DNA of 64,000 nucleotides, from assembly GCA_964016885.1 (NCBI GenBank), contig OZ024742.1, positions 26,040,001-26,104,000 on the forward strand, written 5' to 3'. The position numbers and the translations under genes were made by a program. Below, in pieces: positions 2,304-53,715 of this stretch (position 1 is its first letter; every line of letters starts with the position of its first letter). This DNA comes from Eledone cirrhosa. Its lineage: Eukaryota. Below the pieces are notes generated by a model. That model saw only the letters and a list, made by a program, of their open reading frames with translations, did not search any database and was not told where the DNA came from.

Positions 2304-2706
2304 TGCAGAAGTTATATTTAATTTTTTGGGATTCCAGCAAGCTTAACAGTTTCTAACTAACATAAAGCACTCAACAGGAAAAACTGGAGTAAATATTCAA
2401 TATATTAATAAATGGAAACTATATTTATAAAACCATAATTATTTTATTATATATATTTCAAGGACAAACAAGGCATTCTTGGTGCGCTTTCATCAGATAA
2501 AATACAAGATTTGTTTTATAAATATTGACACAACCAGTGAACTTTCAACCGTCAAGGTTCTTTTTTCCACGGTTATGTCAATATTTATAAAACAAATCTT
2601 GTATTTTATCTGATGAAAGCGCACCAAGTATGCCTTGATTGTCCTTGAAATATATATAATAAAATAATTATGGTTTTATAAATATAGTTTCCATTTATTA
2701 ATATAT
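2304..2706 (-). mobile_element. Family B fold-back element with an HHR in each arm
   Basis: Inverted arms ~2400-2535 and 2571-2706, plus an unpaired tail at 2304-2400 homologous to 11975-12065; TA-flanked. Confidence 0.9.
2602..2666 (+). ncRNA. Type I hammerhead ribozyme motif (mirror copy on - at ~2439-2503)
   Basis: TATTTTAT-CTGATGA-AAG...CTT-GAAA-TATATA-TA-ATAAAATA: 8-bp stem I, intact core, palindromic minimal stem III. Confidence 0.8.
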
Positions 2707-7402: not shown

Positions 7403-7716
7403 GGATGGAGATAATGGTGATGAAGATGACATTAACAAATTACTTCACTATCATCCAGAAAACCATCAACCTACATTTTTGCTAAGTTAATTGCAGACAG
7501 GTCATTTATAATCACAGTGAGGACATCATTGCATGGGTCGTAATTTGTTGTTAATTCCTCACTAAAGCTGGGTTTCTTTTATATTCTTCAAGCATCATAA
7601 CTAAGATTTCTGGTCGTGAGGGAGGTATAAGCATTTATGTGTATGTATGTATGTATGTATGTATGTATGTATGTATGTATGTATGTATGTATGTATGTAT
7701 GTATGTATGTATGTAT

Positions 7717-11596: not shown

Positions 11597-12095
11597 GACG
11601 ATATTAATAAATGGAAACTATATTTAATAAAACCATATTAATTTCATTATACATATTTCAGGGATACAAATTAATTATGGTATGCCTTCATCAGACAAAA
11701 TACAATATATAACAGTTTTACAAATAAGCTTTTACGTACCCTTTTAAAATGCAACCATTATTTTTGGAAGCCATCTGGATAGCTTCCATCCAGATGGCTT
11801 CCAAAAATAATGATTGCATTTTTAAAAGTGGTTACGTCACAGCTTATTTGTAAAACTGTTATATATTGTATTTTGTCTGATGAAGGCATACCCATAATTA
11901 ATTTGGTATCCCTGAATTATGTATAATGAAATAAATATGATTTTATAATATAGTTTCCATTTATTAATATCGTATATCTACTCCAAATACTTGTCGAGTG
12001 CTTTATATCAGTTATAAAAATATTTTACTTGTTGTATCCCAACAATTTTAAATAGAACTTTTGCATTGCTAAAACAATCTCTATACGTCTCATTT
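11597..12095 (+). mobile_element. Family B fold-back element, copy 2, with an HHR in each arm
   Basis: Arms ~11598-11780 and 11787-11975. HHR at 11869-11933: TATTTTGT-CTGATGA-AGG..CCT-GAA(T on +, A on -)-TATGTA-TA-ATGAAATA. Tail runs to ~12095. Confidence 0.9.
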
Positions 12096-16004: not shown

Positions 16005-16946
16005 TTGCGAGGTTTTTTATATGAAATCGTGTGTCGAAACAAATATTGTTATACTTGGGGAGGGTCATATTTGTGTAATATTGCCAGAATTAATAACAGA
16101 ACACACTCACTGTTTGGTTGGTTTTCGCTTCTCGCTGTCTTTTATATCGGTAATCTAACTTACTCGGTCCTCAATGTTGCCATTGACTGACCGACGGTCA
16201 AAAATAATACAGATACAATATAGACTAAAACACATATATATATAGTTTATCATAAATCTTTCGTTGCATATCTGCAACATCGTCAGTGGTGTTATATTTT
16301 CCTCCTTGTGTGTTGTATGTCTACGCCATTTTTATTCGGTCTGTCTATATATTTATTTATTTATTTGCTTGTTTGTTTATTTTATTTCGTCTTCTTTGCG
16401 CATGCGTTTGCGTGTGTGTATAGTGTTATGTTTGCTGTGTGATGGGTGACTAGTGTGTGTTTATGTGCTTGTTGTTATTGTGCTTGTGTTTGTATTTATT
16501 TATTTATTTATCTTATTTTATTTACTTATTTATACTTCTCTTAGGTCAGTGTTGTTTGTTTGGGTGTATTTGTTATTCCATTCATTCTTTCTGTTTAGCT
16601 TTGGTCTTCTAATTTCTATTTCACTGGCCTCTCTGATTTGCCTATCTGTTGGGTCATTTCTATGTTTAGATATCTTTTCTAATTTCTATGTTGTCTATGT
16701 TACCGTCATGTTGTTGTCTAGCATGTTCGTATATTACTGACCCGTTTTTCGTCCTTTTAGTTACCCCCCAGTGTTGGTCTATTCCATGATTTGCTCCTGT
16801 ATAATGGGCAAATTCCTTTCATGTCCAGTTCTATGAGGGTCTTATACTTTCCATGGCTCCTTCGTATACTCTGACTCTGTCTCTTAGGTTGTAGCCAGAA
16901 AACTGCATGCGGTTGATGAAGTGTTGGATGTGTCTTTCCAAAGGGC

Positions 16947-18225
16947 CACATATTTAAGTTCAATGAGAAAATCTACACCCTAAATGAGGGAGCAGCCATC
17001 GGCGTCAACATAGCTGGTGATGTTTCCAACCTTTTCATGGTATGGTGGGAAAGGAGACTTAAAGATCTCCTTAATGAAAGCTCCATAGACCTCATCATGT
17101 ACTTTCGTTATGTAGAGGATATCAATATAGTTATAAGAACACCCCCACTAGAGAGCACTAACAAGTTTGATTTTGAACGTAGCACGATGGAAAGCATCCA
17201 GCAGATAGCTAATTCCATACACCAGAGTATAACTGTATCTATCGACTTCCCTTCCAAACACGCTAACAATATACTACCTGTATTAGACACTGAACTCTGG
17301 ATTAACACTATAGACGAGAGAGCCCAAATTCTCCACTCACACTATGCTAAACCCATGGCCTCCAAATACCTGATACTCAAAAACTCAGCAATGTCCAGTA
17401 GTGCTAAGTTTAATATTCTGATCGCAGATTTGGTACGAGTGATGAAGAATGTGTCCCGCATGTGCGACCCAACAGAAATGGAAAGACACATCCAACACTT
17501 CATCAACCGCATGCAGTTCTCTGGCTACAACCAAAGAGACAGAGTCAGAGTATACGAAGGAGCCATGGAAAAGTATAAGACCCTCATAGATCTGGACATG
17601 AAAGGAATTTGCCCATTATACAGGAGCAAATCATGGAATAGCTTAGATAGGGCTAGACATAAGATAGGGAAAGCCACCTCATGGTACGATAACCAGAGAT
17701 ACCAGAGTGTCATGGTTGTGGACGCCACCCGTGGAGGGAAATTAGCTAACCAGTGTAGAAAGGCCCTGAGAAAGACCCACTTAAAAATAAAGGTGGTAGA
17801 AAAGACAGGAACCACCATAAAATCCTTGATCAGCAAAACCTACCCTTTTAAGAAAACCCACTGTACCAATAGGAAATGTATCATATGTAAGGTGAACCCC
17901 CGGATAAACTGTAAAACTAGAAACGTAGTCTATAGCATAAGATGTACAGAGGGTACTTGCAGAAACATGACAACAACATACATAGGTGAGACAGCTCGTA
18001 GCATAGGTGAAAGGATAGACCAACACTGGGAGGAACTAAAAGGACGAAAAAACGGGTCAGTAATATACGAACATGCTAGACAACAACATGAAGGTAACAT
18101 AGACAACATAGAAATTAGAATAATATCTAAACATAGAAATGACCCAGCAGATAGGCAAATCAGAGAGGCCAGTGAAATAGAAATTAGAAGACCAAAGCTA
18201 AACAGATAGAATGAATGGAATAACA
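16947..18225 (+). pseudogene. PLE reverse transcriptase C-terminal half plus GIY-YIG endonuclease
   Basis: FKFNEKIY...GAAIG...FMVWW, YFRYVED (YVDD mutated), PVLD, Cys linker C-x4-CxxC...C, NVVY...YIGETARS..ER..QH...EA.EI...LNR*NEW. Confidence 0.93.
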
Positions 18226-18502: not shown

Positions 18503-18566
18503 AACACCACTGACGATGTTGCAGATATGCAACGAAAGATTTATGATAAACTATATATATGTGTTT
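18503..18566 (+). ncRNA. HHR-like core in the family E 3' region (mirror at ~16230-16292)
   Basis: CTGACGA-T-GTTGCA-gata-TGCAAC-GAAA is clear, but stems I and III pair poorly. Confidence 0.4.
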
Positions 18567-18767: not shown

Positions 18768-19029
18768 ATTAGAAAGTAAGGTTTCTTTTACAAAATGAAA
18801 AATAACCGAGGTGTTCTACGAGTGAAAGTATAAGGAAAGAAGATGAAATCGAAAATGCAACTGGAGTCTTTTTTTTTTTAAATATATATTTATTTGGCTC
18901 CTTTACCGGTTTCGCACTTCTTCTGCTTTTGAAAAGCAGAAGAACTGCGAAACTGGTAAAGGAACCAAATAAATATATATTTAAAAAAAAAAGACTCCAG
19001 TTGCATTTTCGATTTCATCTTTGTTCCCT
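18768..19029 (-). mobile_element. Family D fold-back mini-element
   Basis: Palindrome centred at ~18930 (ttcttctgctttt g aaaagcagaagaa), followed by C-GAAA-CYGG-TA-AAGGA (HHR 3' half); unpaired tail 18768-18830; TA-flanked. Confidence 0.85.
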
Positions 19030-22564: not shown

Positions 22565-22889
22565 TAAGAACACAAGATGGTTAAAAGAGTTCCATGTATT
22601 TTATTATGAGCATTTCAAAAACAAATATCATCATGGGATGATATTTGCGTTCTCATCAGATAAAAAACGGACACATGATATGAAGCTTAAAAAACACTTG
22701 CGAGCAGTGAATTGTTAAATCAACATATGCTGATGTTTGTTTTGAAATGCGCATAATAAAATACATGGAACTCTTTTAACCATATTTTGTTCTTATATTA
22801 TTTATACTCCAGTCCTATAAACTGTGGAGTGCTACTTATCCGATATTTGCTTTGCTTTATTGTGCTACAATAAAACTCACCTTCTACAT
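22565..22889 (+). mobile_element. Family C fold-back element
   Basis: Arms 22565-22627 and 22733-22796; tail with ACTCCA...TGGAGTGCT; ends aactcaccttctaca(TA)n. Confidence 0.85.
22599..22665 (-). ncRNA. Type I HHR motif
   Basis: TTTTAT-CTGATGA-GAA.GCAAATATCATC-ccat-GATGATATTTGT.TTT-GAAA-TGC(T/G)CA-TA-ATAAAA; stem III is the palindrome ATGCGCAT in the other arm. Confidence 0.8.
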
Positions 22890-52876: not shown

Positions 52877-52917
<41 letters not shown>

Positions 52918-52921
<4 letters not shown>

Positions 52922-53665
52922 GAAACACACAGATACATGCCGACGCACACATATATACATGAACGCATCCGCACCCAACTGTGAGTTAAGGGTGCCAACT
53001 TCACCGATGTTGCTCAATGAATGACTGGGACAGACCAATTCAGTTTGAACTAGACTGAACCAGTATCAGAGTTAAAAATACATTATGAAGAGAGAAGAAA
53101 CATTTAGATATAATTAGTAATAAAATGTATCATACCTAAACTGTTCCTAAATTCCTCGACTACGTAGTTTCGTGGCATAAACAAAAACAATATATCAAAG
53201 ATATAGAGTCCTTGCGAGGTCTGCCGACTTATCAAGAGGATACCTCATTTTACTAGTCTCAAGAACGCGTCTACACGACGTGAGAAAGAATCCCAAAAGG
53301 CGGAGGGGGAGATAGTCACGCGATATAACGGTCGAGAAACCGAGCTAAGCCTCTTATAACCACGAAGAAAATACCACGGAGGCGGAGGGGGTATTCATAT
53401 CGAGGCCGTAGAAGAGGTAGTGAAGAAGGCGAGAAGTATGAGTAATGGAAGCTTTCCAGTTGTCCCCACGTCGTGTAGACGCGTTCTTGAGACTAGTAAA
53501 ATGAGGTATCCTCTTGATAAGTCGGCAGACCTCGCAAGGACTCTATATCTTTGATATATTGTTTTTGTTTATGCCACGAAACTACGTAGTCGAGGAATTT
53601 AGGAACAGTTTAGGTATGATACATTTTATTACTAATTATATCTAAATGTTTCTTCTCTCTTCATA

Positions 53666-53670
<5 letters not shown>
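52918..53670 (-). mobile_element. Family G fold-back element (very young)
   Basis: 204-bp arms 53079-53282 and 53467-53670 with no difference I could see; 184-bp spacer; unpaired tail 52918-53078; TA-flanked. Confidence 0.95.
53509..53596 (+). ncRNA. Type I HHR motif with a U3-A8 covariant core (mirror at 53153-53240 -)
   Basis: TCCTC-TTGATAA-GT(C)GGCA[44 nt]TGCCAC-GAAAC-TACGTA-GTC-GAGGA. Confidence 0.78.

Positions 53671-53715
<45 letters not shown>

Follow-up and report, generated by a model that had tools for sequence, protein, structure and literature searches.

The hammerhead-shaped motif at positions 53509-53596 of the window (the whole 64,000-nt stretch of Eledone cirrhosa DNA analysed here) raises two linked questions, namely whether a self-cleaving ribozyme can be read from a core that departs from the hammerhead consensus, and what kind of element has placed this core inside a long inverted repeat. 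The preliminary description of the locus answered both by proposing a functional hammerhead variant of a new kind within a very young, perfect palindrome. We find a different explanation quite probable. The motif would be one of two mirror-image, hammerhead-shaped U3-A8 motifs carried on a 591-nt non-coding repeat, and the apparent palindrome a pair of head-to-head, 5'-truncated copies of that repeat set in (TA)n, likely the product of one insertion by a Penelope-like reverse transcriptase and endonuclease acting in trans.

The motif itself can be drawn as a type-I hammerhead, with three helices around the core and helix I open. On the plus strand (53509..53596) it reads, in order, TCCTC, TTGATAA, helix II, GAAA, CTACGTAG, TC and GAGGA, and this sequence is the commonest variant of its family, with 31 copies in the genomic sample described below. 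Stem I comprises five base pairs, between TCCTC (53509-53513) and GAGGA (53592-53596). The base of helix II comprises six, which are G53521-C53577, T53522-A53576 and, beyond a bulged C53523, GGCA (53524-53527) with TGCC (53572-53575). GAAA at 53578-53581 supplies G12, A13, A14 and A15.1, and helix III is the 10-nt palindrome ACTACGTAGT (53581-53590), within which A53581 and T53590 provide the A15.1-U16.1 pair. Position 17 is C53591, an H17 residue and not G, and the GTC (GUC) at 53589-53591 predicts a cut between 53591 and 53592. The core strand, read from the sequence at 53514-53520, is UUGAUAA in place of the consensus C3 U4 G5 A6 N7 G8 A9 (CUGANGA). With U3 at 53514 and A8 at 53519, a Watson-Crick pair between positions 3 and 8 is possible. 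The core, the 5-bp stem I, the bulged 6-bp stem II, the palindrome and the GTC had all been listed at the outset, and the sequence bears them out. A mirror motif of identical sequence, matched by the hammerhead descriptor, occupies 53153..53240 on the minus strand, where the core runs from 53235 and the predicted cut falls after C53158.

Computed folds place the hammerhead close to the optimum. The hammerhead-constrained monomer reaches -20.7 kcal/mol against a minimum free energy (MFE) of -21.8 kcal/mol (1.1 kcal/mol apart), and two molecules cofold into a double hammerhead with a 10-bp intermolecular helix III (-57.3 kcal/mol). The monomer fold is modestly better than those of shuffled sequences (z -1.85), 10 of 200 shuffles being equally good. 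In 35 distinct variants of the family, 98-99% of the cells in helices I, II and III are paired. Within helix II, two inner hairpins had been proposed; the six-pair base below them stands, but the CCT/AGG hairpin is paired in 83.7% of cells in the same variants, against 97.1% for a single long inner helix. The long helix is also the one chosen by the MFE fold, and its G-U pairs become A-U in old subfamilies. A single rod of 57 nt (53521-53577) is therefore the better drawing of helix II, with the 6-bp base followed by an inner helix of 14 pairs. As had been anticipated for standard searches, Rfam models pass over the motif, returning no hammerhead there either at gathering score or at E values up to 10, and none at gathering score in the whole window.

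We further note that the unusual core is the rule in this family. A 23-mer taken from the motif matches the 3.0-Gb genome without mismatch at 7,458 places, and its reversed control at none. For a 23-mer spanning the core, exact genome copies number 5,950 with U3-A8, 7 with U3-G8, 5 with C3-A8 and 0 with C3-G8. A canonical-core sister, sought with a 15-mer that joins CTGATGA to the start of helix II, gave one match against two in the reversed control. These counts, with the canonical core on the family's own helix II at background level, indicate that the family consensus is U3-A8. The double change preserves the 3-8 pair, as had been suggested, and a canonical family consensus, which would have spoken against the variant as first read, is not what the genome holds. 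Similarly, a hammerhead descriptor run over 337,774 bases found 98 family matches with U3-A8, against none for the C3-A8 control and one for the U3-G8 control, the latter being a decayed family copy. The G12-A14, A15.1-U16.1 and H17 columns are invariant in the 35 variants, in a half of the motif that was partly used to find the copies. In old subfamilies (L041, L062 and L068), which share about 80% identity with the young unit, the half of the motif that played no part in finding the copies still has its core, stems, GAAA, palindrome and GUC, and a single pair of stem I has gone from U-A to U-G.

What carries the motif is a unit of 591 nt with 41.5% GC and no open reading frame above 75 aa, carried in several thousand copies. 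Folded as a circle, the unit has an MFE of -165.2 kcal/mol (z -5.4 against 40 mononucleotide shuffles). Positions of the copies at this locus were defined by aligning a reference unit (L014:1520-2110) to the window with blastn. The minus-strand copy (52913..53469, 98.4% identity) is 557 nt long and covers unit positions 280-591 and then 1-245, and the plus-strand copy (53467..53671, 99% identity) is 205 nt long and covers 467-591 and then 1-80. Both are 5'-truncated, with 3' ends at unit 245 and unit 80, respectively. Each outer end adjoins a (TA)n microsatellite identified by Tandem Repeats Finder with period 2, one at 52878..52918 (20.5 copies) beside the 3' end of the minus copy, where it is part of the insertion target, and one at 53669..53711 (21.5 copies) beside the 3' end of the plus copy.

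The inverted repeat that first drew attention to the locus consists of two 210-nt arms, 53073-53282 and 53467-53676, lying 184 nt apart. Since the only mismatches fall at 53672 and 53674, 205 nt are identical between the arms (one more than the 204 bp first reported), and the plus copy at 53467-53671 is the reverse complement of 53078-53282. The 184-nt spacer is the minus-strand copy running on, so that the locus is not a perfect palindrome but two copies of unequal length. The recent activity ascribed to the family does look likely, with 205 of 205 positions identical between the arms and many copies 98-99% alike.

This arrangement recurs throughout a sample made up of the window and 54 segments from contig C1 of the same genome (273,774 bases). 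In all 29 two-armed insertions the minus copy precedes the plus copy, with the 5' ends facing. The inner 5' junctions are variable, differing at each of 28 independent loci, and the outer ends are fixed; 79 of 83 family 3' ends adjoin (TA)n. At least one full unit is present in 36 of 83 arms, and head-to-tail arrays extend to about 4.9 units (the longest being 2,907 nt). The median identity is 99.8% between the arms of a locus and 97.6% between copies at different loci, and this higher identity within loci fits the copying of one template into both arms in a single event.

These patterns bear directly on the palindrome that was originally proposed. A very young perfect palindrome, that is, a foldback or terminal-inverted-repeat DNA element bearing a novel functional hammerhead variant, would explain why the arms agree at 205 of 205 positions and is in keeping with a U3-A8 family consensus. 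Such an element would not be expected to leave copies as unequal as 557 and 205 nt with ends at unit 245 and unit 80, inner junctions that differ at all 28 independent loci while the outer ends stay fixed, or the same unit in head-to-tail arrays. The novelty also falls away, because U3-A8 covariation in nature was reported in 2011 (Perreault et al. 2011, PMC3088659) and the variant was described again in Penelope-like elements in 2014 (Cervera and de la Pena 2014, PMC4209133). We therefore regard a palindromic element as highly improbable, and the inverted repeat appears to be the usual two-armed insertion footprint of Penelope-like elements.

The recurrence of the arrangement is equally relevant to whether the inverted repeat might be an assembly artefact, or the hammerhead likeness a product of chance. 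The absence of an Rfam match would be compatible with chance, and an artefact would be compatible with the inner junction at 53466/53467, which no contig of four runs bridges among the matches listed. The same arrangement with different junctions at 28 independent loci, the one match in total to the mismatched-core controls (0 for C3-A8 and 1 for U3-G8) against 98 for U3-A8, and the placement of the motif near the 3' end, as described for Penelope-like element hammerheads (PMC8557442), make either possibility scarcely credible. As a separate observation on the runs, compared here with 52913-53469, the run richest in the 591-nt repeat has summed depths of about 300,000, and two runs labelled as other organisms contain one contig of about 620 nt each, self-closing as a 591-nt unit at a depth of about 8. 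The latter contigs could reflect true presence of the repeat in relatives or carry-over of an abundant repeat.

The outer ends follow a simple rule. Mapped with a multimer query, the 3' ends of 85 arms fall at unit 79-81 (41 arms), at 245-253 (38) or elsewhere (6). In 26 of the 28 independent pairs an arm with its end at unit 80 is matched by one ending near 245, and two like ends occur in none. One-armed insertions use either end about equally (13 versus 12). The longer end carries a 165-nt extension, unit 81-245. From this pairing of ends we infer that priming took place twice, in concert, on a single template, each time at a different TA-like site.

A mechanism that would join these features can be proposed. 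Tandem copies would yield transcripts in which the 10-nt palindromic helix III joins two hammerheads into a double hammerhead, with cleavage after GUC. The unit-length RNA would then be closed into a circle, unless uncut multimers took its place. Both nicked ends of a (TA)n target would prime cDNA synthesis on the unit RNA at two TA-like sites 165 nt apart, and the two priming events would give rise to two converging, 5'-truncated arms. In its most specific form, the proposal has a single circular RNA of 591 nt, cut and re-ligated, primed in concert at two fixed TA-like sites that lie 165 nt from each other, and we lean against this tentative form more than towards it. If it is true, thousands of natural insertions record how Penelope-like enzymes build inverted structures, and the 591-nt family, driven by a U3-A8 hammerhead, is the largest of the animal retrozymes.

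Two further details concern the 5' ends. Three apparent 5' ends at unit 1, which would have suggested a pile-up at the cut site, were rejected as an artefact of the query start, the real starts being unit 576, 578 and 588. The inner junctions of three loci (L007, L048 and L052; unit 576-578) lie within 3 nt of one another at the start of the GAAA/helix III palindrome, and this cluster may mark template switching at a self-complementary stretch.

The arms also speak to whether the motif cuts. They cross the predicted cut site in 75 of 83 cases, and a single 5' end among 85 (multimer query) lies within 6 nt of it. It follows that the templates were uncut or re-ligated. Arms that cross the site fit a circular RNA, and they fit an inactive motif equally well. 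The motif would then be the descendant of a hammerhead with no or negligible cutting, kept because the family is young or because retrotransposition uses this part of the RNA in another way, for instance to let the reverse transcriptase recognise it; the motif lies about 80 nt upstream of the 3' end. Along with the crossing arms and the missing pile-up of 5' ends at the cut site, the pattern of variation is in keeping with such a loss. Two-sided covariation was found in none of the 30 motif pairs among the 35 distinct variants, and shuffles do equally well; nor is low variation confined to the ribozyme, since unit 41-80 is as invariant as the block that holds stem I and the core (501-520). Published activity data point in both directions. 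In a 2023 deep mutational scan of a type III hammerhead, the reported rescue of the 3-8 pair came solely from the G:C swap (PMC9901934), and the minimal hammerheads of Penelope-like elements are described as cleaving poorly in vitro (PMC4209133), whereas Perreault et al. (PMC3088659), citing earlier work, state that ribozymes whose positions 3 and 8 covary had shown activity in vitro.

Loss of activity is harder to reconcile with the motif itself. All the defining core elements are intact, the 3-8 Watson-Crick pair is kept in 5,950 copies against 12 single revertants, and subfamilies that have diverged by about 20% elsewhere still have their core, stems and palindromic helix III. Evidence for a functional motif also comes from the low per-site variation of unit block 501-520 (0.003, against 0.01-0.09 in many other blocks) and from the variants common to several loci, which change the bulged C or the hairpin loop, or turn A-U into G-U. 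We thus consider an inactive motif rather unlikely, and we place the predicted activity of the family ribozyme in tandem transcripts slightly above an even chance. The predicted activity at the window locus is lower than this, because each strand holds a single hammerhead, helix III needs a partner and a read-through transcript would fold into a 205-bp hairpin. With one hammerhead per strand the locus is likely unable to form the dimer that the palindromic helix III needs. In all probability, then, this copy is inert, a product and not a source.

An autonomous partner was sought among Penelope-like frames. The window contains one such frame of the reverse transcriptase (RT)/GIY-YIG type at 16920-18209 (plus strand, 429 aa), 5'-truncated and accompanied by a short inverted, truncated stub upstream (16781-18209 in all), the layout also seen in the hammerhead family. 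Its best named relative is a protein of Octopus vulgaris (62% identity), and Pfam gave no match for the frame. The 3' UTR of the frame shares with the 591-nt unit only chance matches of 8-13 nt, and the Penelope-like RT fragments that tblastn finds near some family copies are separate insertions. Neither tblastn near the copies nor the 3' UTR of the window frame revealed a hammerhead or 3' end in common between any Penelope-like frame and the family. The stretch 18505-18545, some 300 nt downstream of the window frame, combines CUGACGA, an unpaired U, a 6-bp helix II (GUUGCA/UGCAAC) and GAAA. This stretch resembles the hammerhead of a Penelope-like element, and no convincing helix I was found for it.

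Other hammerhead-like families share the window. A head-to-head pair by (TA)n, at 2448-2496 (minus strand) and 2610-2658 (plus strand), has one canonical CUGAUGA hammerhead-like motif per arm, in which helix I is AU-rich and 8 bp long, helix II is long and helix III is UAUAUAUA. This canonical-core family has a two-armed layout and a 23-mer with 8,184 exact genome copies. A 3.67-kb spacing within it was considered as an element and set aside as microsatellite-like filler. A third family, found at 18880-18990, in L091/L092 and at 18 other loci, is also two-armed, with the head-to-head junction falling within its own motif, and one of its 27-mers is present in 12,499 exact copies. The sequence of full copies is CCUU / UUGAAAA / GCAG..CUGC / GAAA / CCGG / UA / AAGG, a minimal hammerhead-like arrangement with a U3-A8 core. 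Helix I of this family is doubtful because its 5' strand varies (CCUU, ACUU, AAUU) while the other side is unchanged. The descriptor further returned canonical-core hammerhead-like motifs with a long helix II at 11648-11694 and 22605-22659 (both on the minus strand), and in the 337,774 bases it found 10 further canonical-core candidates against 0-1 for unpaired or other 3-8 cores. One canonical candidate near a family copy (L033:1486-1557) scores 38.6 bits with the Rfam model Hammerhead_HH9 (E 1.9e-06), the gathering score being 52.

As the U3-A8 core is not new, the value of the 591-nt family is as material for other questions. Being young, very abundant and exclusively U3-A8 in its core, the family offers a natural test bed for the replacement of C3-G8 by U-A in a full-length, dimer-dependent hammerhead. 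The rule of one short and one long end is a countable footprint that could help to clarify how Penelope-like elements integrate. In addition, model-based ribozyme annotation with Rfam misses such families entirely.

Among known systems, the closest match for the motif is found in the Penelope-like elements of Schistosoma mansoni (Cercyon), where U3-A8 hammerheads were reported with about 1,300 matches (Cervera and de la Pena 2014, PMC4209133). As described there, Cercyon hammerheads share with the present motif the type-I form, a 5-bp helix I, a larger-than-usual helix II that begins with G10.1-C11.1, a minimal palindromic helix III that calls for a dimer and the replacement of C3-G8 by U3-A8. 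Like the present family, they occur in thousands of copies with opposite-strand pairs a few hundred bp apart, and the same report places paired hammerheads of Penelope-like elements on opposite strands at distances of 100-700 bp. The differences from that account lie in helix II, which is a 57-nt rod here and 7-8 bp in the hammerheads of Penelope-like elements; in the unpaired base, which follows 10.2 here (A9 is directly followed by G10.1, and the bulged C lies two pairs deeper) and sits between 9 and 10.1 in theirs; in helix III, which unlike that of Cercyon is a full 10-nt palindrome; and in the carrier, a 591-nt non-coding unit in place of the pseudo-LTR of an element that encodes RT/GIY-YIG.

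The unit as a whole also resembles the metazoan non-LTR retrozymes, described as non-coding units that carry type-I hammerheads and lie in tandem (Cervera and de la Pena 2020, PMC7229834), and animal retrozymes have been proposed to derive from Penelope-like elements (Li, Clavereau and Pollet 2026 preprint). Shared with the retrozymes of these accounts are the type-I hammerhead, short non-coding head-to-tail repeats, a GC content below 45% (41.5% here), a strongly structured unit, a proposed mobilisation in trans via unit-length, possibly circular RNA and a proposed Penelope-like descent. The present unit is longer (591 nt against monomers of 150-450 nt) and its core is U3-A8 where that of the metazoan retrozymes in PMC7229834 is canonical. 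Unlike them, most of its insertions are two-armed and lie in (TA)n, and cleavage and circular RNA are here predictions.

In its insertions the family follows the footprint described for Penelope-like elements by Craig, Yushenova, Rodriguez and Arkhipova (2021, PMC8557442), which includes 5' truncation, partial tandems, a bias for (TA)n, an adjacent inverted and 5'-truncated copy, and an extension or tail at one end only. The 591-nt insertions likewise have fixed 3' ends, variable 5' truncation, an inverted copy, a one-sided extension and a microsatellite target. The extension occupies the place given there to the tail, and amounts to 165 nt here (unit 81-245) and to 30-40 bp in the Penelope-like elements of that report, and the 591-nt unit, unlike Penelope-like elements, has no RT/GIY-YIG frame inside it. 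What sets the family apart is thus its 591-nt unit length, its long helix II and its 165-nt one-sided extension.
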